This document shows positions 9,076 to 59,250 of a DNA stretch of 64,000 nt, piece by piece (position 1 is the first letter of the stretch; each line of letters begins with the position of its first letter). The notes under the pieces were generated by a model. The model was not told the origin of the DNA and did no database searches. It worked only from the letters and a program-made list of their open reading frames with translations. This stretch comes from Bacteroidales bacterium. GTDB lineage: Bacteria; Bacteroidota; Bacteroidia; Bacteroidales; WCHB1-69. The stretch spans positions 2,808 to 66,807 of the forward strand of contig JBLJBB010000107.1 of NCBI GenBank assembly GCA_047638115.1, read 5' to 3'. The position numbers were made by a program, and so were the translations under genes.

Positions 9076-9280
9076 TTTGGGCATTCCGGCACCACCCACC
9101 CACTATCCCACCCTGCTGCCGTCGGGCTTGTTCCGGGGTTCGCTTCGCTCCCGTGCTTCACTGCACTTCGCTTAATCCAACATCATGATAATATCAAAAT
9201 CATCGCGGCGCTCGTTCCAGTTCGCACCGGCTTCGCCGCCCTCCACATCCCTAATGCGTAAAACCGCAAGCGGTTTTTGG
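9076..9280 (+). repeat. GC-rich interspersed element, family B copy 1 (with 3' hairpin)
   Basis: Starts TTTGGGCATTCCGG and ends CCCTAATGC, followed by hairpin AAAACCGC-AA-GCGGTTTT. Shares GTCGGGCTTGTTCCGGGGTTCGCTTCGCTCCCGT and ACCGGCTTCGCCGCCCTCCACATCCCTAATGC with the copy at 12598. Confidence 0.85.
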
Positions 9281-12597: not shown

Positions 12598-12720
12598 TTT
12601 TGGGCATTCCCCCTCGCTTCGCTCGGGGTCGGGCTTGTTCCGGGGTTCGCTTCGCTCCCGTACTCCATTCCGCTTCGCTCCATTCCGTACCGGCTTCGCC
12701 GCCCTCCACATCCCTAATGC
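12598..12720 (+). repeat. GC-rich interspersed element, family B copy 2 (short form)
   Basis: TTTGGGCATTCC...CCCTAATGC. Shares two long blocks with the copy at 9076. Spurious ORFs 12433..12717, 12523..12711 and 12600..12830 run through it. Confidence 0.85.
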
Positions 12721-12734
12721 AAGTCGGGCTCAGG

Positions 12735-12750
12735 GCAAATGGCAAATGGC
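12735..12750. repeat. short tandem repeat (GCAAATG)x2
   Basis: GCAAATGGCAAATGGC directly after the element. A similar GGCCAATGGCCAAGGG follows the element at 34955. Confidence 0.6.
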
Positions 12751-12794
12751 TAAGGGGTTTCAGTTGTCAGATTTCAGTATTTGTTTTCTTAAAA

Positions 12795-12838
12795 ATTAAC
12801 CACAAAGTGCACAAAGTTTTAATAAAGTAACACAGAGG
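12795..12838 (+). repeat. AACCACAAAG-type repeat module, copy 1
   Basis: ATTAACCACAAAGTGCACAAAGTTTTAATAAAGTAACACAGAGG here versus ATTAACCACAAAGAACACAAAGTTTTAACAAAGTTATACAAAGG at 35096. Confidence 0.8.
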
Positions 12839-12852
12839 AATAGTGAATCGTC

Positions 12853-12878
12853 TCGCTGCAGAGCAGCGTTATATTTGT
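12853..12878 (+). repeat. 26-nt direct repeat, copy 1: palindrome CGCTGC-AGA-GCAGCG fused to TATATTTG
   Basis: TCGCTGCAGAGCAGCGTTATATTTGT, identical to 12906-12931. Period is 53 nt. Confidence 0.85.
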
Positions 12879-12905
12879 AGCAAACGAATTAACTGTCAAG
12901 TATTG

Positions 12906-12931
12906 TCGCTGCAGAGCAGCGTTATATTTGT
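12906..12931 (+). repeat. 26-nt direct repeat, copy 2
   Basis: TCGCTGCAGAGCAGCGTTATATTTGT. A third related -7-like box (TTATTTTTGTCGCAGAAATAA) lies near 12975-12995. Confidence 0.85.
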
Positions 12932-13063
12932 TGCAGAAATAATGAATAATTGAGTAGATAGAACATTTTTTTTCTTATTTTTGTCGCAGAAATAAAATTA
13001 GAACTATAAAAACCTCCCTCAACGCTCCCTCTTTAAACAGAATCAATTGTCAGGAATGAAAAA

Positions 13064-13231
13064 GTATCGATAAGGAATATAAATGTATTATTAAGGATAT
13101 CAGTTGTAACTATAAGGAAACTACATGTACTGAAAAGGAATTACAATGTAAGATAAAGGAATTAAATTACATATATAAGGAATAAAAGTGTACTCAAAAG
13201 GAATTTGATTGTAACTATAAAAATACAGATA
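13064..13231 (+). repeat. array of eight exactly phased 21-bp tandem repeats (consensus GTAnnnAtAAGGAAtnnAnnT)
   Basis: Units start at 13064, 13085, 13106, 13127, 13148, 13169, 13190 and 13211. Seven of eight contain AAGGA at the same offset and seven of eight start with GTA. The last unit abuts the ATG at 13231. Confidence 0.85.
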
Positions 13232-17887: not shown

Positions 17888-18061
17888 AAAAAAATGTAAA
17901 CTTTTGTATATCATTTGTATTAATAGAGAGTTTCACCCGTGAACCCAATGTATTACACCCGTATTACAAACGTATTACTCAATTTCAATTTTATCAATCT
18001 CTTTCATTAACCGATCTGTTTCACATAGGGCGATGATGATTTTTTGGTAGTGAACGATGTC
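17888..18061. repeat. 174-bp direct duplication, copy 1 (flanks the IS)
   Basis: Appears identical base-for-base to 19740-19913. Contains a detached copy of the last 29 codons plus the downstream region of the RM gene. Confidence 0.9.
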
Positions 18062-19739
18062 CTGACTTCGACACTGGGACACCCTAAATGGATTTCCAGA
18101 AATTATCATCAAAAAGCATAGCAATTGATTTATGTCTTGCTGTTATTAGCATAGTTTTTGTGAGTGTTGTGTCACTAATTGGTAATTTTACTTTTATAGT
18201 AGTTATTGTTTTAGCAATATTCAATACTTTGTCTACACTTAGTGGTGTATTGTTTGATTTCAACACTCTCTCCAGCTCTTTATATATTTTGTAAGCAACA
18301 AAGCAAATGCAAACATGTGCTTCTATTCTTCGTGGTGTAAAGTGGAACATGGGTCGTATTTCAAGAGTCCCTTTTGTTATTCTGAACGCTTTTTCAACAA
18401 CCCATAAACCATTATATTGTTCATATACATCTTTAGCTGAAAGCAATGTATTCGTAATGTATCCTTTTAACCCATCCCATTTTGCATCTTCATGTATTCT
18501 TTCTTGATTGATTACTACTTTTACATTATCGGATATCTCCAAAAACTTATTGTACCCTCGTTTATTGATGTTCTCTTTCGTAATATTGCCCGTTTTATAT
18601 GCTTTTTGAAGTCGTTTTACACCTTTTTCTCTGTTGTACTTGTCTTTCCTTGCTCTGACAGAAGAATAGCTTACAATTAACCGAGAATCACCTTTTTTAA
18701 GTTCATGAAATTCATTATCATGCTTTGCTAAAGACAAAATATTCCTTTTTACTACTTCTGTCTCATTTTTTATTCTTGCTCCCACAATGTATTTGTATCC
18801 ACCCGATTGCAATAGAGATATATTTGATTTACTCATTAACCCGGAATCAGCAACAACCACAAAATCATCCAAATTAAACCTTTGAACAAAATCTTCAACA
18901 ATAGGAAGCATTGTTCTGCCCTCGTATTGAGAACCATTGAATAACGAGTATGAAAGAGGATAACCATCTCTACTAACCAACAAACCAAGAACAACCTGTG
19001 GTTGACTGTGTTTTCCATCTTTTGAAAACCCATTTTCTCTCAGGTCATCGCTATAATCGGATTCAAAATAGAGCGTAGTCACATCATAAAACATTAAACC
19101 AATTTTACCACCTAAAATCTTACGGGTATGTTCTACACTTATTTGTTGGATCTTTTCTTGTTGTGTGTTATAAAGTTTATCCAAATAACGATAAATCTTA
19201 TACAACTGAACATCTTCATCAAAATATGATTTTAAATAATCCACTGTAGCTGATTTACTCAATGGTTGGCCTAACCGAGCAATCACCAATTGACGTAAAA
19301 TATCATCCTCTATGGCATCAAATCCCGTGATTTTAAACACTTCATCTAAAATTAATTGTGTGCCATTTATAAGCACGTTTTCAATACTAGACAACAAATG
19401 CTCTGTAACTTGTTTCTCTTCCTCTTCTCTTGCTTTTTGTTTAAACATATCTGGAGTCCCACTTTGAACTTCAATCCATTGACGACCCTTTTTAATAAGG
19501 TCATCAACAAAAAGTTCATCTTTACTACTCCCAATAGTATGAACGACCTTATACTTGCCTTTACTTTTATCAATAATTTGAACACTGATAACTCCGCTGG
19601 GATTCTTTTTCTTTCTAATAAACATACCACAAAAATACATAATTTTATGCTGGGACACCCATTTCGGTGTCCCAGAAATTATATGATGTTGTCTATTAAC
19701 CAGTTACAAATTTGTGTTAAAAAAAGTGTCAAAGTCAGG
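18062..19739 (-). mobile_element. IS1634-family (IS4 superfamily) insertion sequence, apparently intact
   Basis: Terminal inverted repeats CCTGACTTCGACAC (left) and GTGTCAAAGTCAGG (right). Single transposase ORF. Flanked by a 174-bp direct repeat. End coordinates are accurate to +/-2 nt. Confidence 0.85.
18084..19625 (-). CDS. IS1634-family DDE transposase (ORF-track start 19658)
   Basis: N-terminus MFIRKKKNPSGVISVQIIDKSKGKYKVV.. is typical of IS1634-group transposases. DDE-type core with VVADSG and a YxxR..E-like block (WVVEKAFRITK). Confidence 0.85.
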   Translation of the reverse strand: MFIRKKKNPSGVISVQIIDKSKGKYKVVHTIGSSKDELFVDDLIKKGRQWIEVQSGTPDMFKQKAREEEEKQVTEHLLSSIENVLINGTQLILDEVFKITGFDAIEDDILRQLVIARLGQPLSKSATVDYLKSYFDEDVQLYKIYRYLDKLYNTQQEKIQQISVEHTRKILGGKIGLMFYDVTTLYFESDYSDDLRENGFSKDGKHSQPQVVLGLLVSRDGYPLSYSLFNGSQYEGRTMLPIVEDFVQRFNLDDFVVVADSGLMSKSNISLLQSGGYKYIVGARIKNETEVVKRNILSLAKHDNEFHELKKGDSRLIVSYSSVRARKDKYNREKGVKRLQKAYKTGNITKENINKRGYNKFLEISDNVKVVINQERIHEDAKWDGLKGYITNTLLSAKDVYEQYNGLWVVEKAFRITKGTLEIRPMFHFTPRRIEAHVCICFVAYKIYKELERVLKSNNTPLSVDKVLNIAKTITTIKVKLPISDTTLTKTMLITARHKSIAMLFDDNFWKSI

Positions 19740-19913
19740 AAAAAAATGTAAACTTTTGTATATCATTTGTATTAATAGAGAGTTTCACCCGTGAACCCAA
19801 TGTATTACACCCGTATTACAAACGTATTACTCAATTTCAATTTTATCAATCTCTTTCATTAACCGATCTGTTTCACATAGGGCGATGATGATTTTTTGGT
19901 AGTGAACGATGTC
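19740..19913. repeat. 174-bp direct duplication, copy 2 (contiguous with the RM gene)
   Basis: Appears identical to 17888-18061. Confidence 0.9.
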
Positions 19914-22900
19914 TTCAAAGTTGAGGGTTCTCCCTTTGCGGTCTTTGAGCCACTTTTGAGCGGGTTGGTAGCCGCCAATATAGAAGTTCCAAGCTACTTC
20001 CGGAACGTGATCAAAATATTGGTTTTCGTTGATGAATACTTTTCCGTTTTCGTATATGGGCTTGATCACTTCATGTGAGCCCTCAATGGGATATTGGATT
20101 TGTGTTTTGTTGAGTATAGGACTATCTAATAAATGGATCTGCCTGATCTCTCTCCCTAATTTTACTAATTTCCAAAATGTTTTTTGATCCTTTGGATAGG
20201 GAACTCTAGGAAAATCAATTTTTAAAAACTCTTTGTGTTTTTCTCGGTAAGTGGGTGAATGTAAAACCGCATAAATGTAATCTAATATACTCAAAGGAGA
20301 AAAGATCCCATCAACCCCTGCAGCTAAATCACAATCGATATTTTCATCTTCTAAAAAAGCATGATTTATCTTTTTTGCTATTAAATCAACTATTCCCAAA
20401 TTTAAATTGGGGACTCTCTCTAAATCCTGATTAATGGTGTTTTGAGCTTTATTTTCGGGGTAAAGATAAAGAGGGAAAGTATAAGTAGTTTCTTTAGTTT
20501 GTAAACTGACCGTACAAACTTCTGATAAATCTTTAGATATAAGTATGTGCTGAAAATCAAATGTGCTTTGTTGTCTACAACATAGTAAAGCGATATTCTC
20601 CTTTAACATATGTTGCATAACTTTTTGGGCTGGACGACTGACAATTTGTGGGTCGTAATAAATGGAACGAATATCAAATGGACGGTAGAGAATATTTTTA
20701 ATAAAGTCTGAATTGTATTTTTTCCCTTTAATTCTTTCTGTAATTTTAAAACTTCCAGAATCAACAACTCGGTACTTATCTATAAATGATTTTGGAATTT
20801 CCCCACCGAGCAAAGTTTTAAATCTATTTTCAATATCTGTTTTCCTTTCACCTATGAATAAAGAATCACGATCAGTTTTTACTCCGTTATTTTTATTAAT
20901 AAATAGTTCATTTAATGAAAACCAACTTTCATATTTTTTGTCACTTAATTGCTTTGGTACAAAAAAGTAATAAGGTTGTTCATAGAGAAGTTTTTTAAAT
21001 CCAATTTTTAGTAAATTATTATCTTTTAGTGTTGAATATTTGAATTCTCGATTACCATATAAGTCAAAATGAAAAACTTGGCCTAATTCATTTTTCTTTT
21101 TCTTATCTGTTTTTACAAAAATGTTTATTGAAACACCCTGTTGAATGTCAAATACATTTTCATCTTTGCCTCCATCTAATGTCGTTTCATTCTTTTTGGC
21201 ACTTCCATGTAAGTCGAGAATATAGATTTTATCAAAGCTTTCCAATAAACTTTTTCGCATTTGACGATGGGTAATTCCGTCAATAAAACTGTTGTTAGAA
21301 ATATACGCTAAAACACCACTTCCATTTTTATCAATAAAGTGTTGGCCATACCGAATGAATTTAATATAATCATCATCAAGATTTATTTTCTTTTCGTTTA
21401 AATTCTTTTTATAATCGATTATTAAATTTTGAATCCACTCACTTTTATTTGTGCTACTTACCGCATAAGGAGGATTTCCTATAATACACATAACAGGGGT
21501 ATCTCGTTTAATATGGTTGGCTTCGTCGGCTTCAGCACTTAACCAGTTGGCAAAAAGCGTGCCAGTGTCTTGGTGGTATTCCTCTAAACTATTGGTGAGA
21601 TAAACTTTAAAACGTTGATTTTTGGTGGCTTTAAATCCTGTTTCTTTTAGTAATAGATCCAATTTTAAATGTGCCATAGCATAACTGGCCATGAGGATCT
21701 CAAATCCATTTAATCGGGGTAGTAAATGGGTTTCTACATAGTTGCTCCAAATCCCTTGTTGTCCTTCAAATTTTTTGTAAATCAATTTGATCACTTCAGC
21801 TAAAAAAGTTCCTGTTCCAGTGGCAGGGTCTAGGATCTGAACCTTATGAACCTCTTGATCCACCATCTTCCCTTGAACATTTACTTTGATTTTCGTTTTG
21901 CTTGTATCTGCTAATCCGTTGGGTAAATCAAACTCTGTTTTTATAATTTCATCTACTGCCCTCGTGATAAAATTAACTACTGGAGCTGGAGTGTACCATA
22001 CCCCTCTCGCTTTTCTTAATTTTGGATCATATTCACTCAAAAAGTCTTCATAAAAATGGATAATAGGATCTTCCATTTTTGAATTCTTTCCATAGTTTTT
22101 TAACATCTCTTCAACGTTGCACGCCAAAAAGATATTGACTAGATCATCTACAATCCATTTAATCCGATCATCAACATCTAAACCCGCAATATACCCAAAC
22201 AGTTTTTTTAAAAACGGGTTTGATTTGGGGATCAGTTCATACGCTTCTTGTCTGTTGAAAGTGGTTAAAGTCGGATCATTGGTTCTTGCTGCAAACATAC
22301 CATAAGCAATCGTTTGCGCATACACATCAGCAAATCCTTTGGACGTGATATCATGGATCAAAATCTGTTTAAAAGCTTTCATTTGATCCTGTAAAGTGCT
22401 GTTTTCACTATTCTCTTCATCAGACAACAACGCTTTTTCAATCACCTCAGAAAGTAAACGCGCTTTCCCTGCCATCATTTGAGCCAATTTTTTTGAACTT
22501 TTGATAGTTTGTCCAATATAGAGGCAAAAATCTTTCATTAAAAATTCAAAACGTTCAAAATTTTCGGGGAATGGTTTGATCCCTTTTTCTGTAACTTCAC
22601 CAATGGTAATTTTCAAAAGGAACTCCCCATCTCTATATATATGAAAGTTCAGATAATCGGTAAAGATCAGATTACTCAAAGAATCCTTATAACGGTCAAA
22701 TTGCTCTTTATTTCCGGTTTTTTTAAGTCCATCAAGATCGGAATCCCCAATATCTTTCGCTTCAATAAAACCTATAGGAATATCTTTTTTAGTAAGGATA
22801 TAATCGGGTGCACCACAACTTTGTCTTTTGGGTTCATTAGTTGCTCTGATACCGGGAACAAGATCCTCAATCAGTTGCTGTAAGTAACCTCTATAGGAAT

Positions 22901-22964
22901 GTTCTGTAGCGTTTCCAAGTTTATAAGTTTTGTTAATATTCTCAATATATTGGGCTGTGGTCAT
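19827..22964 (-). CDS. single-polypeptide restriction-modification enzyme (type IIG/IIL-like: PD-(D/E)xK nuclease + gamma-class N6-adenine methyltransferase + C-terminal specificity region)
   Basis: N-terminal GAPDY...IGFIEAKD (PD..ExK), SAM motif I ILDPATGTGTFL and catalytic motif IV IIGNPPY. The C-terminus (..YIGGYQPAQKWLKDRKGR..) resembles the specificity domain of ISP/IIG enzymes. No helicase domain and no separate M or S gene. Confidence 0.8.
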   Translation of the reverse strand: MTTAQYIENINKTYKLGNATEHSYRGYLQQLIEDLVPGIRATNEPKRQSCGAPDYILTKKDIPIGFIEAKDIGDSDLDGLKKTGNKEQFDRYKDSLSNLIFTDYLNFHIYRDGEFLLKITIGEVTEKGIKPFPENFERFEFLMKDFCLYIGQTIKSSKKLAQMMAGKARLLSEVIEKALLSDEENSENSTLQDQMKAFKQILIHDITSKGFADVYAQTIAYGMFAARTNDPTLTTFNRQEAYELIPKSNPFLKKLFGYIAGLDVDDRIKWIVDDLVNIFLACNVEEMLKNYGKNSKMEDPIIHFYEDFLSEYDPKLRKARGVWYTPAPVVNFITRAVDEIIKTEFDLPNGLADTSKTKIKVNVQGKMVDQEVHKVQILDPATGTGTFLAEVIKLIYKKFEGQQGIWSNYVETHLLPRLNGFEILMASYAMAHLKLDLLLKETGFKATKNQRFKVYLTNSLEEYHQDTGTLFANWLSAEADEANHIKRDTPVMCIIGNPPYAVSSTNKSEWIQNLIIDYKKNLNEKKINLDDDYIKFIRYGQHFIDKNGSGVLAYISNNSFIDGITHRQMRKSLLESFDKIYILDLHGSAKKNETTLDGGKDENVFDIQQGVSINIFVKTDKKKKNELGQVFHFDLYGNREFKYSTLKDNNLLKIGFKKLLYEQPYYFFVPKQLSDKKYESWFSLNELFINKNNGVKTDRDSLFIGERKTDIENRFKTLLGGEIPKSFIDKYRVVDSGSFKITERIKGKKYNSDFIKNILYRPFDIRSIYYDPQIVSRPAQKVMQHMLKENIALLCCRQQSTFDFQHILISKDLSEVCTVSLQTKETTYTFPLYLYPENKAQNTINQDLERVPNLNLGIVDLIAKKINHAFLEDENIDCDLAAGVDGIFSPLSILDYIYAVLHSPTYREKHKEFLKIDFPRVPYPKDQKTFWKLVKLGREIRQIHLLDSPILNKTQIQYPIEGSHEVIKPIYENGKVFINENQYFDHVPEVAWNFYIGGYQPAQKWLKDRKGRTLNFEDIVHYQKIIIALCETDRLMKEIDKIEIE

Positions 22965-23041: not shown

Positions 23042-23263
23042 TTGGAAATAAAAAAAAATCTGCATCTTTCACATGAGAGTTTACTAATGCAATTATGTGA
23101 TTTAATTATGGGAGCTATCTCTTCAGATTTAAATGAAAAAACTACTGTACCAGCTAAAAGACATATAATAGAAAAAATAAAGCAACATACTAATCAGGGT
23201 TTCGATAAAACAACTTATGAAAACAACCCTAAAATTGATATTTTTTGTATAGAATTGAGATAG
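23042..23263 (+). pseudogene. possible C-terminal fragment of a DUF3800-like gene
   Basis: 73 codons with a TTG start. The LMQLCDLIMGAIS block resembles the conserved (Q)LADLIAGAI block of DUF3800 proteins. The N-terminal two-thirds are missing. Confidence 0.3.
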
Positions 23264-23264
23264 T

Positions 23265-23771
23265 ATGCCAACAAATTTACTTATAAAGTACAATAATTTA
23301 TTAGAAATTGATTCTCTACAAGAAGATCAAAGGGAGAATTCATTATTTCGTGTTTTTTCCAGAGATATTATTGACAATCAATCTTTTAGTTTTCTGAGCA
23401 AAAAAATTCATCCAACTCCTCAGGAAGGAGAAAATAAGATGGAAATTTTATTTAGACATTTAACAACAAAAGTAATTGACCCTTATACAAAAAAGAGAGA
23501 ATTTGAAAGAGAAAGATCAATTAGACTCCACTGGATTAAAACTCACATTGATTGCTGCATTCCAGAAGGGATTTTAATTTTTTCAGTTGATGAACCAAAT
23601 GGAATAAAAACTTACATTTTCAATAAAAAAGAAAACTATATAATTGTTTTAGAACCTCTTAGAAAGTGTGCAGCTTATTATTTATTAACTGCATTTTACA
23701 TTGAAGGTAAAGATAAAGAAAGAGAAAAGTATTTAAAAAAATTTAAAAGGAGATTATCTGATATTTATTAA
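23265..23771 (+). CDS. hypothetical protein (168 aa)
   Basis: Starts 1 nt after the preceding stop. ERSIRLHWIKTHI...YIIVLEP...LLTAFYIEGK weakly recalls small phage/toxin-type nuclease folds. No firm motif. Confidence 0.45.
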   Translation: MPTNLLIKYNNLLEIDSLQEDQRENSLFRVFSRDIIDNQSFSFLSKKIHPTPQEGENKMEILFRHLTTKVIDPYTKKREFERERSIRLHWIKTHIDCCIPEGILIFSVDEPNGIKTYIFNKKENYIIVLEPLRKCAAYYLLTAFYIEGKDKEREKYLKKFKRRLSDIY

Positions 23772-24468
23772 ATGCAGAAGACGCAGAACATCGAGGGTTT
23801 TGCGTCTTCCGATTTCCTTCCTCCGAACGGCAGGATGAACTCGATGCAAAAGTACATAAATTTTCATATAAAAAATCAAAATTCAAAAAAAAAAATGTAT
23901 TATTAAATCAATTCTATTTATCTGATATTCAATTATTTTTGTTTATTATATTTGACTTTTTAAAATTAAACTATATTATAAACTCAATTATTTTAGAAAC
24001 ATATTCTATATAAATTGCACCAATCAGGGAATACAATATTTATTGCAAAAGGTAAATACAATCGTTTATTATGAATTTTTGAGGTCATAAAATAATTCCG
24101 CTCTTTATACATTTTACAACTTATTTCCACTAGTTTGGTGATAAAAATACAACTTTTTTCCACTTTCTATCTTTTTTATAACATTTAATCCCTTTTTGGT
24201 TATAAAAATTACAGGATTTCTCAATATTCATACATCATTATTCATTACTATTGCAACCTCTTCGAGGTAGTAGATTGTCGTTGTTGTTCATTTTCAGTAG
24301 GTGGTGCTTCGCATACCTCTTTCCGTAGGTAGCTTCGCTTACCTACGGTTACTATACTGGAACCTCTTCGAAGTACTTTGGACTATGGACAACAGACTAC
24401 AGACTTGCAATTCGCTATATATTAACTAATTTGCAAAACTATTCACTCTTCACTATTAACTATTCACT

Positions 24469-24673
24469 CAAAACCGCATGTTTTGCTGCATTAGGGCGGA
24501 GCCGGAAAGCCCGCAAAGCGGAACGGCGATGTGATGCAGGGAGTAAAAGAGCGACCAACGGAAGCTCCTTTTACGACCATGCAGTCACACGGCGGAACGG
24601 TGCGGACTTGCAGGCGGAGACCGACGGTTGTAGAGACGCACGACTGTGCGTCTCTACAACCGGAATGCCCAAA
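24469..24673 (-). repeat. GC-rich interspersed element, family A copy 1
   Basis: Plus-strand reading: hairpin CAAAAC-CGCAT-GTTTTG, then GCATTAGGGC...CCGGAATGCCCAAA. Contains a 16-bp hairpin GGTTGTAGAGACGCAC/GTGCGTCTCTACAACC. Spurious ORF 24431..24715 runs through it. Confidence 0.9.
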
Positions 24674-34748: not shown

Positions 34749-34787
34749 CAAAACATTATTCACTATTCGTTATTCATTATTCACTCA

Positions 34788-34955
34788 TTTTGGGCATTCC
34801 GGCTCGCTGCGCTCGCCGTCGGTCTCCGCTTCCAAGTCCGCGCTCGCCAGCCGTGTGACTGCATGGTCGTAAAAGGAGCTCCCGTTGGTCGCTCTTTTCC
34901 TCCCTGCATCACAACGTCTTTCTCGCTTGCGGGCTTTCCAGCTTCGCCCTAATGC
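34788..34955 (+). repeat. GC-rich interspersed element, family A copy 2
   Basis: TTTGGGCATTCCGG...CCCTAATGC. Collinear with the reverse complement of 24488-24673 and 58978-59160, except that the long hairpin is replaced by 13 nt. Spurious ORF 34785..34967 runs through it. Confidence 0.9.
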
Positions 34956-35012
34956 ACTTGGGCGCAAGGTTAAGGGCCAATGGCCAAGGGCTTTCAGCTG
35001 TCAGTTTTTTTT

Positions 35013-35052
35013 AAGGTTTAAAGGTTTAACGCTTCGCTGTTTAAGGGTTTAA
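35013..35052 (+). repeat. GGTTTAACGCTTCGCTG module, copy 1
   Basis: AAGGTTTAAAGGTTTAACGCTTCGCTGTTTAAGGGTTTAA here versus GGGTTTAAAGGTTTAACGCTTCGCTGATTCAGGGTTAAT at 57538. Confidence 0.8.
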
Positions 35053-35095
35053 TTCAATTGCCTTATACTTTAGTGCAAGGCAATTTTGAGTAAGA

Positions 35096-35139
35096 ATTAA
35101 CCACAAAGAACACAAAGTTTTAACAAAGTTATACAAAGG
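35096..35139 (+). repeat. AACCACAAAG-type repeat module, copy 2
   Basis: See 12795-12838. Confidence 0.8.
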
Positions 35140-35202
35140 AGTTCAGTCTTTATTCACTAATTTATTTGCATGTAAATAAGTTAGTTGCACATTCCCCTCC
35201 AC

Positions 35203-35240: not shown

Positions 35241-35277
35241 AAACGGCAAAGCTCGCAAAGAACTTTGTGATCATTTC

Positions 35278-35345
35278 TTACTAACAAATACCCAAAACTC
35301 TAACCGCAAAGTTCGCAAAGATTTTTCGCAAAGCTTGCAAAGAAC
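35278..35345 (+). repeat. CGCAAAG repeat module, copy 1
   Basis: TAACAAATACCCAAAACTCTAACCGCAAAGTTCGCAAAGATTTTTCGCAAAGCTTGCAAAGAAC, collinear with 57791-57853. Confidence 0.85.
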
Positions 35346-35474: not shown

Positions 35475-35509
35475 GGCAAAAGGTAAAAGGCAAAAGGCAA
35501 AAGGCAAAA
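35475..35509. repeat. heptanucleotide tandem repeat (GGYAAAA)x5
   Basis: GGCAAAA GGTAAAA GGCAAAA GGCAAAA GGCAAAA, preceded by ATTAGGGCCAATGG. Confidence 0.85.
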
Positions 35510-57488: not shown

Positions 57489-57500
57489 CAAAAAAAAGAT

Positions 57501-57541
57501 GCAGGGTGCAAGGTGCAAGGTCAAGGATCAGGGTGCAGGGT
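57501..57541. repeat. degenerate heptanucleotide tandem repeat (GCARGGT)n
   Basis: GCAGGGT GCAAGGT GCAAGGT CAAGGAT CAGGGT GCAGGGT. Confidence 0.75.
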
Positions 57542-57575
57542 TTAAAGGTTTAACGCTTCGCTGATTCAGGGTTAA
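57538..57575 (+). repeat. GGTTTAACGCTTCGCTG module, copy 2
   Basis: See 35013-35052. Confidence 0.8.
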
Positions 57576-57706
57576 TCTTCAATTTTTATTTGCTAATATG
57601 CAAATTTAAATATTTAGCCACGAATTCACGAATTAAAAACGAATTAATTTTTCAATTCTAATTTTATTATTCATTATTCACTATTAATTATTCATTCTTC
57701 TGGAGT

Positions 57707-57783
57707 TTCACAGTGTTAATGTGTCCTGTTTTTCAATTTCAAACACTGTGAAACACCTTTTAACCCTGTGGTACACTGTGATC
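57707..57783. repeat. CACAGTG repeat module, copy 2 (contains a 13-bp inverted repeat)
   Basis: GTTTCACAGTGTT...AACACTGTGAAAC plus GTACACTGTGATC. Confidence 0.75.
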
Positions 57784-57790
57784 TTTTCTC

Positions 57791-57853
57791 ATTAACAAAT
57801 TCCTAAAACTCTAACCGCAAAGAGCGCAAAGAACTTTCGCAAAGTTCGCAAAG
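57791..57853 (+). repeat. CGCAAAG repeat module, copy 2
   Basis: ATTAACAAATTCCTAAAACTCTAACCGCAAAGAGCGCAAAGAACTTTCGCAAAGTTCGCAAAGAA. Confidence 0.85.
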
Positions 57854-57903
57854 AAAAATTAACAAAATTCTGATTTAGCCATTATTTTATTTGGATAGTA
57901 GTT

Positions 57904-58533
57904 TTAAAAATTAACACCAACTTTAAAAATTCCTTGTGCTCCATATCCAATCTCCATATTCAAAACCTTTGATTTAGTAAAATTTAATCCAAGGAGGCAT
58001 ATATGTAAGTCTGGGAAAATGTAATTTGTGTGTCCGGTAAATGAAAAACTCTCTCTCTTACCCAATCTATTTGTATAATTTATGCCAATTCCAACTGAAG
58101 AATAAAGTGACAGGTTATCTTTATTAATGTAGGTGAATTTGTTTGAAATGAAAAGTGAGTATACATGAATGTTTGTCCCATACTCAGTTGATAAAAGGTA
58201 TTCAGTTTTTTTTAAAGAATATACACCATTAATACCTAAACTATATTTAGAGCTAAAATTATAATAATAACTAAAATTAAATGAGAATGGGATTGAATAG
58301 GATGTATATTCGGGTTTATTATAAAAACCAAAGAAGTAACCAGAAAAATAAAAAGTTTCATATACTAAATTATATGGATTAAGTGGTATTGGAAATATCC
58401 CCACCGATACATTAAACTCATGTTTTTTAAATGTTGGCTTTGTTGGGGTTTGGTTTTCTTGAGAGAACCCTTCATTGGTGGCAAAAAGTAGCATAACCAT
58501 TGCCATAAATAATTTTATATAATGCTTCTCCAT
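57904..58533 (-). CDS. outer-membrane beta-barrel protein (ORF-track start 58608)
   Basis: Signal peptide after Met26 (MEKHYIKLFMAMVMLLFATNEGFSQ). Alternating Y/F/S strands and C-terminal ..FKVGVNF. Confidence 0.5.
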   Translation of the reverse strand: MEKHYIKLFMAMVMLLFATNEGFSQENQTPTKPTFKKHEFNVSVGIFPIPLNPYNLVYETFYFSGYFFGFYNKPEYTSYSIPFSFNFSYYYNFSSKYSLGINGVYSLKKTEYLLSTEYGTNIHVYSLFISNKFTYINKDNLSLYSSVGIGINYTNRLGKRESFSFTGHTNYIFPDLHICLLGLNFTKSKVLNMEIGYGAQGIFKVGVNF

Positions 58534-58600
58534 AATATTGTGTTTTTGATTACTATTTTCTGTTTGCAAATACTTTGCAATAATACAACAAATAATTTGA

Positions 58601-58640
58601 ATTAGCAAATTAGCAAATTAGCAAATTAGCAAATTAGCAA
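58601..58640. repeat. perfect octanucleotide tandem repeat (ATTAGCAA)x5
   Basis: Five exact units located 68-107 nt upstream of the ATG of the minus-strand beta-barrel gene. Confidence 0.9.
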
Positions 58641-58856
58641 ATGTATAGTATTGTATATCAACAGTATAAAAATTTAGACAGGATGTGATATAATGTGATT
58701 TTGAGCTAATTATTTATCCAATTTTTGGTTTTTAAGCTCAAACTTATGAAAAAAAATAAGTTGTTTTGGAAGGAATATTAACAATTGTTAACAATTAGCA
58801 AAAATTCATTTATTCTATTATCCGAGTGCCCTTAGCCTTTAGCCCTAATGCAAGGA

Positions 58857-58884
58857 GCTGTCAGCTGTCAGCTATCAGCTATCA
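58857..58884. repeat. heptanucleotide tandem repeat (GCTRTCA)x4
   Basis: GCTGTCA GCTGTCA GCTATCA GCTATCA, preceded by an orphan CCCTAATGCAAG element end at 58843. Confidence 0.85.
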
Positions 58885-58958
58885 GTTTTTGTATTTTGTT
58901 GGATTATTGTTGATTGCAAAAAATGGAACGCGGATGACGCAAATTTTCAATAGCAACT

Positions 58959-59160
58959 CAAAACCGAAGGTTTTGTTGCATTAGGGCGAAGCCGAGAAAG
59001 CCCGCAAAGCCAGAAAGTGATGGGATGCAGGGAGTTAAAGAGCGACCGAAGGAAGCTCCTTTAACGACCATGCAGACCACACTTGATGGCTGCGGACTTG
59101 AAGGCGGAGACCGACGGTTGTAGAGACGCAAGCATTGCGTCTACAACCGGAATGCCCAAA
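58959..59160 (-). repeat. GC-rich interspersed element, family A copy 3
   Basis: Hairpin CAAAACC-GAA-GGTTTTG, then GCATTAGGGC...CCGGAATGCCCAAA. Collinear with 24469-24673. Confidence 0.9.
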
Positions 59161-59167
59161 TTAATAA

Positions 59168-59190
59168 GCTAATGTGCTAATGTGCTAATT
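59168..59190. repeat. octanucleotide tandem repeat (GCTAATGT)x2 plus a partial unit
   Basis: GCTAATGT GCTAATGT GCTAATT. Confidence 0.75.
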
Positions 59191-59210
59191 GAATGAATAT
59201 ATTAAAAAAT

Positions 59211-59250
59211 GACTTTAGACTTTAGACCTTTGACTTTAGACCTTAAACCC
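59211..59250. repeat. degenerate tandem repeat (GACTTTA/GACCTTT)
   Basis: GACTTTAGACTTTAGACCTTTGACTTTAGACCTTAAACCC. Confidence 0.7.

Follow-up and report, generated by a model that had tools for sequence, protein, structure and literature searches.

GC-rich intergenic elements of a Bacteroidales genome: a probable diverged branch of Flavo-1 with a three-way fold and an exchangeable hairpin arm

The window analysed here is a 64,000-nt stretch of the genome of a Bacteroidales bacterium (contig JBLJBB010000107.1, positions 2,808 to 66,807). Its GC content is 33.6%, and five intergenic GC-rich islands of ~60-67% GC, including the one at 34792-34955, are the elements considered below. Judged by their termini, architecture and intermediate forms, these elements appear to be a diverged, GC-rich, high-copy branch of Flavo-1, a Bacteroidota family that Rfam lists among its small RNAs, and they fold as a three-way junction with one exchangeable arm. 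The reading that we prefer, and in which our confidence is about even, is that they are structured DNA repeats of the repetitive extragenic palindromic (REP)/bacterial interspersed mosaic element (BIME) kind, and hotspots of recombination.

All five elements are branched, 119-183 nt long, and share the layout GGGCATTCC-[insert]-GTCGG-[body]-CCCTAATGC. Their common start, pointed out in an earlier sequence-only reading of this DNA, is exact: TTTGGGCATTCC occurs exactly five times in the window, at 9076, 12599 and 34789 on the + strand and at 24673 and 59160 on the - strand, the orientation being mixed (3 on +, 2 on -). CCCTAATGC closes every copy at its 3' side and is found 6 times in the window when 0.30 are expected, so that the frame and its variable segment are real, far beyond chance. 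The TTT preceding GGGCATTCC belongs to the flank and not to the scaffold (T in ~90% of copies); GGGC holds the first invariant base, and element coordinates are counted from it. The variable segment, between GGGCATTCC and the invariant GTCGG, measures 17-36 nt and differs among copies; as first described, it is bounded by TTCC-GG and CC-GTCGG in four copies, and by TTCC and GTCGG in the copy at 12602. A small hairpin with a T-run follows three copies, as had also been seen (9260-9278, 24469-24485 and 58959-58975).

The insert is an exchangeable hairpin arm, P2, of the three-way fold and not a set of unique sequences, since inserts fold and their four classes are each seen with body types A, B and C. 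It had initially been held that the insert differs completely in each copy. Two of the five, CTCGCTGCGCTCG (34803-34815) and CTCGCTTCGCTCG (12613-12625), agree at all but 1 of 13 nt, and both palindromes belong to one family with common arms, GTTGTAGAGACGCA...TGCGTCTCTACAAC; three kinds of insert are therefore present among the five window copies, not five. The 13-nt insert first reported at 34802 is itself correct, its coordinate being off by one. When inserts are tabulated over 77 real copies, the window's five included, their boundaries are fixed and they are not all different, falling into four recurrent classes and assorted hairpins:

GGCTCGC-n3/4-CTCGCC: 18 of 77 copies
CCCTCGCTnnGCTCGGG: 8 of 77 copies
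GGCA-[C-rich loop]-TGCC: 18 of 77 copies
GGCTTTCC-[C-rich loop]-ACGCC: 8 of 77 copies
Other hairpins: 25 of 77 copies

Self-complementary folding is found in 75 of these 77 inserts, and each of the four classes is combined with each GC-rich body type. The tract at 9090 that had been taken as C-rich and unstructured is the loop of a GGCA/TGCC stem, recurring with variable positions in the 18 copies of that class; more generally, the loops of C-rich inserts hold a few freely varying positions. The view of a fixed frame carrying a swappable segment is borne out by close strains, which have a different insert, or a different insert and body, at two orthologous sites (see below).

Read on the strand that matches Flavo-1, the element is GCAUU-A-GGG[P3]CCC-GAC-[P2]-GG-AAUGC-CC. 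This is a three-way junction, in which P1 joins the termini, P2 stands between GAC and GGAAUGCCC, and P3 is a long hairpin with the published Flavo-1 motif as its base. P1 (GCAUU/AAUGC) covaries to GCGUU/AACGC in five further copies (L089, L091, L101, L086 and L137; L numbers designate our database loci), a form that accompanies each of the body types and is also present in two short copies from Hyunsoonleella. It covaries further to GCGUG/CACGC, as seen in the sequences flanking the Flavo-1 seed alignment of 2010. P3 shows compensatory changes in 16 of 41 predicted pairs among 24 type C copies. As the seed-alignment flanks show both a covarying P1 and a short hairpin, P1 and P2 are general to this Flavo-1 subtype and lie outside the Rfam model.

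The strand that folds is most likely the purine-rich one, complementary to the strand on which the elements were first described (hereafter the forward strand, which reads GGGCATTCC...CCCTAATGC), although this is not settled. On the purine-rich strand, single-side changes in helices amount to 11 G·U cells and 0 A·C, whereas on the forward strand the helices common to both folds count 13 A·C cells versus 1 G·U (types A and C). Where the forward strand has pyrimidine-pyrimidine internal loops, the other has tandem G·A pairs, and GCTTCGC of the forward strand becomes GCGAAGC, a motif which forms a very stable mini-hairpin in DNA. Each of the five window copies reaches a lower folding energy on the purine-rich strand, and the Flavo-1 match also lies on that strand; the forward strand, implicit in the first description, is probably not the one that folds.

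The window copies and their parts are the following, the strand given for elements and their parts being the probable folded strand:

34792-34955, - (Flavo-1) strand: element copy, body type A; the + strand reads GGGCATTCC...CCCTAATGC
34794-34798, - strand: P1 half GCATT, which pairs with AATGC at 34951-34955 and shows the P1 covariation
34801-34817, - strand: P2 arm, that is the insert, class 1, GGCTCGCTGCGCTCGCC; on the - strand a stem, tandem G·A and a short stem-loop
34818-34822, - strand: invariant junction GTCGG; CCGAC on the folded strand, as in the 3' GCCCGAC of the Flavo-1 seed alignment
34823-34946, - strand: P3 long hairpin, with conserved apex GGAGCTC-loop-GTCGCTC and covariation
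34947-34955, - strand: invariant end CCCTAATGC; its AATGC makes up the second half of P1, and its CCC pairs with GG(G) of GTCGG(G)
9079-9257, - strand: copy with type B body; P2 of class 3, a GGCA/TGCC stem with a 23-nt C-rich loop
12602-12720, - strand: short copy with type B body; P2 of class 2 (CCCTCGCTTCGCTCGGG)
24488-24670, + strand: copy with type A body, its P2 a palindrome of 16 bp; site allelic with L229
58978-59157, + strand: copy with type A body, its P2 again a palindrome, within the 1.73-kb segment 57514-59242
9260-9278, + strand: terminator-like hairpin AAAACCGCAAGCGGTTTTT, directly past the CCCTAATGC end of copy 9079-9257
24469-24485, - strand: terminator-like hairpin adjoining copy 24488-24670
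58959-58975, - strand: terminator-like hairpin with a UUCG loop on the - strand, adjoining copy 58978-59157

The wider family was searched for in a species-representative genome collection, with a pattern fixing three invariant words. This yields 74 loci with 76 pattern matches, of which ~72 are real and nearly all from Bacteroidota. About 30 loci come from one 3.47-Mb metagenome chromosome, the remaining ones from several soil, sludge and biofilm genomes, from Hyunsoonleella and Aureivirga isolates and from Flavobacterium, Lutibacter and Mucilaginibacter genomes. In viral contigs, the 74 pattern matches are all chance, without the 3' end. Scores of 46-53 bits against Flavo-1 (RF01705, gathering score 42 bits), on the strand opposite to the forward one, are reached by four loci with identical termini (L082, L086, L124 and L137, from Hyunsoonleella, Aureivirga and a Flavobacteriaceae genome); L188 has 76.5 bits and the Flavobacterium copy L115 has 34 bits.

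The window elements and the 2010 seed alignment have in common the words GCRUUAGGG (5') and GCCCGAC (3'). On the - strand, 34792-34955 reads GCATTAGGGCG...GACCGAC, types B and D have GCCCGAC, and the seed alignment carries GCGUUAGGG...GCCCGACC, flanked by a short hairpin and then G(G/U)AACGCCCAAA. The apex at 24546-24571 is a 26-nt identity with the Flavobacterium psychrophilum seed NC_009613.1/1377002-1377143. The purine-rich word found on both hairpin arms of Flavo-1, GAUUGNAGCGGAAAGCC, has degenerate, recognisably related counterparts in the type A arms, GAAGCUGGAAAGCCCGC and GGACUUGGAAGCGGAGACC. Elements and Flavo-1 are alike in phylum, in flanking words, in being multi-copy and in the apical motif AGAGCGACCAACGGAAGCUCC, present in one seed, and probably also in a hairpin base with purine-rich, pseudo-symmetric internal loops. 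They differ in that the elements are of 60-67% GC, have three diverged body types and stay below any reportable score, and in that the Rfam model ends after GAC, without P2 and the 3' P1 strand (GGAAYGCCC), both of which are visible in the seed flanks. Flavo-1 was described by comparative genomics as a Bacteroidota motif, with no function proposed (Weinberg et al., 2010; PMC2864571). It is among the most abundant 'sRNA' families in Rfam and nothing is known of what it does (PMC9029176, PMC9723704); in the F. psychrophilum transcriptome, its matches are sense, antisense or outside transcribed regions (PMC9723704). A literature search with element sequence strings returned nothing relevant.

The elements behave as repeats in several respects, with five copies in 64 kb. 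Their orientation relative to the upstream gene is unbiased (31 same, 38 opposite), and a cis-regulatory leader was rejected for the absence of any orientation bias to downstream genes. Truncated and 'solo' copies are present among the loci; in L109 (2259-2282), a 24-nt solo form, GGGCATTCCGGCCCACCCTAATGC, has both termini joined with almost nothing between. None of the loci holds a master element, in which the same ends would enclose an open reading frame (ORF); what this search brought up is limited to copies that are truncated, solo or degenerate. Terminal inverted repeats are limited to the 5-nt GCATT/AATGC, and no target duplication is seen.

Contigs encoding proteins identical to those of the window allow alleles to be compared at two sites. 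At the 24.6-kb site, the identity of L229 with the window is 99.5% as far as GCATTAGGGCGGAG; past this point, L229 has a type C body with a class 2 P2, the window has a type A body with a palindrome, and an ORF6N gene is extra in the window. The DUF3800 gene is complete in L229, and the window retains its last ~200 nt. Positions 23065-24516 are 99.5-100% identical to many metagenome contigs (L229-L238), the flanks being just 89-93% identical, which suggests a recently exchanged tract whose right edge lies inside the element. At the 59-kb site, four conspecific contigs (L240, L241, L248 and L249) are without 57514-59242, a 1.73-kb segment holding a 234-aa ORF of no known identity (57904-58608, - strand), several arrays and one GC-rich element. 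The empty allele reads GGGTTAAACCC, the window has TTAAA on both sides, and the ends of the segment (GGTTTAAC... and ...TTAGACC) are weakly inverted. L245 has another P2 (a class 2 insert) at the same location. L247 (2026-2085) has a perfect head-to-head mini-element, GGGCATTCC-GGTTGTAGAGACGCAAGCATTGCGTCTCTACAACC-GGAATGCCC, allelic to window 59115-59160, as expected from recombination within a palindrome; its different upstream neighbourhood implies a rearrangement with its breakpoint at the palindrome centre.

None of the compared contigs offers a clean empty site whose boundaries are those of the element. In CTSoil_032, a Bacteroidetes genome to which the window genes are 82-91% identical in nucleotides, the neighbourhood is rearranged. 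Exact-protein look-ups with three further flanking genes gave nothing, and those with a fourth gave only contigs starting just upstream of the gene. Several contigs terminate inside elements. Allele swaps, the empty allele, the head-to-head fusion and these contig ends establish the elements as sites of recombination and of assembly breaks, and in practice they break metagenome assemblies, many contigs ending in them. The initial suggestion of an insertion hotspot inside a mobile element comes close to what these data show.

Within the fold, fixed sequence is confined to the junction and the termini; as P2 and the interior of P3 need just to remain hairpins, they drift, gain small palindromes and are exchanged between copies. 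The G-C variant of P1, found with all three body types, is one instance of mixing between termini and bodies. In the mechanism that we propose, the element would be an intergenic repeat of the REP/BIME kind that acts as DNA. We infer that it multiplies or moves in the form of folded single-stranded DNA, with an HUH Y1 (IS200-like) enzyme as the possible agent. Being repeated and partly palindromic, it would also serve as a recombination breakpoint, and this use would produce mosaic copies, allele replacement and gain or loss of neighbouring genes.

As to the enzyme, all ORFs in the loci were compared with an IS200 transposase sequence. Five ORFs were found, with 83-88 bits to Pfam Y1_Tnp and 61-73 bits to NCBIfam transpos_IS200, and four of the five genes lie ~200-560 nt from an element. 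The search for an IS200/IS605 partner, which the first description had suggested, thus shows Y1 transposase genes beside elements in 4 of ~70 loci. In L083 and L133, the Y1 gene stands between two elements in inverted orientation, in L096 and L107 an element is on one side, and the CCCTAATGC end is turned toward the Y1 gene in 6 of 6 elements. The motifs DH[VIC]H, WQ and YI.NQ..HH place these proteins in subclass 1.2 of Quentin et al. (2018), a subclass described as low-copy and for which that survey of the superfamily lists no REPs (PMC6006769).

Subclass 1.2 Y1 genes are nevertheless flanked by short REP-like hairpins of their own, CGCTSC-nnn-GSAGCG followed by TTATATTTGTAGC, in inverted arrays with a period of ~53 nt (L107 5990-6240 and 6750-7500; L168, L184 and L159). 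Two such hairpins, with TTTGTAGCA, are in the window at 12853-12882 and 12906-12935, near element 12602-12720. Another REP-like variant lies beside the Y1 gene of L096 (2114-2560), as about eight 52-nt units that each consist of a GGGCTAACGCCC hairpin and CTGCTACGAAG.

Several observations weigh against the preferred reading, and they concern the family, the enzyme, mobility and the strand. (i) The window copies have no match to RF01705, either at the gathering threshold or at E <= 10, where Rfam scans of the window give just two tRNAs and chance matches; their homology with Flavo-1 consequently rests on termini, architecture and intermediate forms. The termini are moreover constant by construction in the loci set, the pattern having fixed them, and the informative part is the interior. 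(ii) The Y1 transposase is not confirmed as the cognate enzyme from the protein side: among 80 metagenome loci centred on the same Y1 subclass, the end motif is present in 2, and a Flavo-1 Rfam match in 1 of the 20 scanned. The actual flanks of those Y1 genes are the different short hairpins with TTATATTTGTAGC, inverted on the two sides and often arrayed, and the window has no Y1 gene. As transposase-centred loci rarely hold Flavo-1 or the end motif, the association seen from the element side may just reflect shared residence in repeat-rich intergenic islands, and the IS200-like link is suggestive, and unproven. P2 is also more variable than would be expected of a hairpin that an enzyme must recognise. 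(iii) In the single clean empty/filled comparison, the inserted unit is the 1.73-kb segment, with ends that are not the element's own. In two Flavobacterium genomes (L146 5612 and L115 4438), a copy lies between ruvB and queG, genes which were read from the translated flanks, a placement that a functional RNA under vertical inheritance would explain as readily as a repeat of slow mobility; there, the element's first G completes the ruvB stop TAG, and the interiors are unrelated. (iv) One U·G pair is invariant on the forward strand, and the UNCG-loop hairpins that often follow the elements look like termination of transcription in the forward direction.

Compared with known systems, the elements resemble REP/BIME and the REPIN-RAYT systems of Proteobacteria as high-copy intergenic repeats whose hairpins are kept by compensatory change, which form mosaic clusters with other motifs, turn over slowly and persist vertically, and which in some loci (L083, L133) flank a Y1 HUH gene as inverted copies. 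They differ from REP in being three-way junctions of 120-190 nt and not 20-40-nt palindromes and in having no GTAG or CGTC tag, and the Y1 genes near them are IS200-like, of subclass 1.2, with other short REPs as immediate flanks. The BOX elements of Streptococcus pneumoniae are modular (boxA-boxB-boxC). The elements are, like them, folded, intergenic, high-copy and non-coding, with conserved terminal modules around variable internal ones; unlike them, they show alternative hairpins at fixed positions and not a variable number of one unit, and there is no sequence similarity. With palindrome-associated transposable elements (PATEs), derived from IS200/IS605, they share the lack of long terminal inverted repeats and of a clear target duplication, hairpins near both ends and a conserved T-rich word beside one end (here a WTTT flank in ~90% of copies). 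Unlike in PATEs, the end-proximal P2 is not conserved in sequence (four classes and 25 other hairpins), no copy is the end of a tnpA-carrying unit, and orientation in the window is mixed.

Alternatively, the elements could be stand-alone structured small RNAs of ~120-190 nt, produced from the purine-rich strand as Rfam files Flavo-1, with a junction that binds a protein or forms a catalytic core and with expendable P2 and P3 interiors. We consider this rather unlikely. The junction nucleotides are kept across Bacteroidota classes, the covariation of P1 and P3 is strong, single-side changes that are G·U only on the purine-rich strand fit an RNA, and the ruvB-queG site is the same in two genomes despite the different interior. 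No promoter motif is found at a fixed distance, however. The sequence-only reading had raised the idea that the element's first bases coincide with a -7 box and could provide its own start, but just 4 of 72 copies have a TAnnTTTG that extends over their first bases, and the usual base at position -6 is T (55 of 75) instead of A. The purine-rich strand furthermore ends with CCC and an A-run, without a terminator, a terminator-like hairpin being often immediately upstream, and the transcriptome of F. psychrophilum shows matches that are sense, antisense or untranscribed (PMC9723704). Five copies per 64 kb and the truncated, solo and head-to-head forms are likewise unlike those of an RNA gene.

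It is improbable, in our view, that the elements are instead cis-acting RNA or transcription modules of the forward strand, in which the GC-rich fold, the UNCG hairpin and the T-run would make a strong terminator, an insulator or a 3'-end protector, as Escherichia coli REP sequences do for mRNAs. Of 75 copies scanned on their 3' side, 21 have a hairpin with a T-run directly after CCCTAATGC. As read from the flanks, its loop is UUCG, UGCG or UCCG on the forward strand in ~14 copies versus 1 on the other, and the invariant U·G pair belongs to the forward strand. The element's own stop, as first imagined, is in this sense partly right: such a hairpin exists, but most copies are without it. Against a terminator role, orientation to the upstream gene is random, overall (31 vs 38) as well as for the copies with a hairpin (8 vs 10), and the helix mismatches favour the other strand.

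We give still less credence to an attC-like site, a folded single strand used as substrate by a site-specific recombinase, with the adjoining small accessory genes as cassettes exchanged at the conserved end. As in attC sites, conserved ends pair with each other around a centre that varies freely in length and sequence, and the neighbours are of accessory type (Fic/DOC, ORF6N, a DUF3800-linked ORF, ORFs of no known identity). The homology between L229 and the window also stops inside the conserved end, the element and the ORF6N gene differing beyond. The cores are different, however, the ends GCATT...AATGC having no match to the integron R boxes RYYYAAC/GTTRRRY, and the elements are dispersed in both orientations and not arrayed. 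No integrase is present among the 13 window ORFs scanned, where the sole recombination enzyme is a DDE transposase (18084-19658), nor is an integron integrase seen nearby, and the right breakpoints of both indels are outside any element.

Finally, the notion that the insert is a guide, or a recognition segment, in an RNA-guided system with a constant scaffold, put forward with the first description, is hardly credible: the fixed boundaries and a few freely varying positions in C-rich loops speak for it, but 75 of 77 inserts are hairpins, their classes are shared between different genomes, the window holds no complementary sequence, viral contigs give no real element matches, and no nuclease, recombinase or other effector gene is consistently adjacent, the neighbours being unrelated genes. 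Self-cleaving ribozymes, retron non-coding RNA and TnpB/IscB guide RNAs were rejected for want of Rfam support and for a misfit in copy number.

The intergenic islands of the elements are crowded by tandem arrays, degenerate and made of 7-8-nt units, each place having a unit of its own:

12734-12750, 24438-24468, 34754-34783, 34972-34991, 35009-35029, 35475-35509 and 57496-57541: degenerate tandem arrays
57666-57700, 58600-58642, 58828-58846, 58856-58885, 59168-59189 and 59211-59245: degenerate tandem arrays

Families of array units, e.g. TAGTGAA, CAGCTGT, AGGGCTA and GGAGACG, are also found beside elements of other genomes, and an array of (TTAGCCC)n leads into a solo CCCTAATGC at 58843-58851. 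A module, TTAACCACAAAGnnCACAAAGTTTTAAyAAAG, lies ~70-135 nt past two elements (12790-12839 and 35091-35140) and forms an inverted repeat around the Y1 gene of L133 (4055-4100 and 4800-4850); a related CGCAAAG-rich module occurs at 35266-35344 and 57777-57855. The DDE_Tnp_1 gene (18084-19658, - strand) has on either side a 174-nt direct repeat, at 17888-18061 and, in identical sequence, at 19740-19913; the latter copy shares positions with the end of a Type ISP restriction-modification gene (19827-22964, - strand). Just before the ORF that starts at 13231, positions 13052-13204 consist of about seven repeats of a 21-nt unit, AGGAATATAAATGTATCGATA.

Our results point to a larger Flavo-1 fold than the published one, whose model is a part of it, the closing helix P1 and the free arm P2 being the rest. 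The diverged GC-rich branch escapes the Rfam model wholly, and the elements are located at strain-level breakpoints and exchange arms among copies. One broader possibility, which we offer as speculative and doubtful, is that Flavo-1 is the Bacteroidota counterpart of REP- and attC-type elements: a three-way-junction, single-stranded DNA site for an HUH (Y1) or another recombinase, which would multiply in some lineages (an estimated at least 100 copies per genome, as extrapolated from five in the 64-kb window), swap arms and mark the turnover of accessory genes. If the DNA-level reading is true, a large Rfam family would no longer count as 'RNA gene' but as 'genomic repeat or recombination site', and the Bacteroidota would own a REP-like system.

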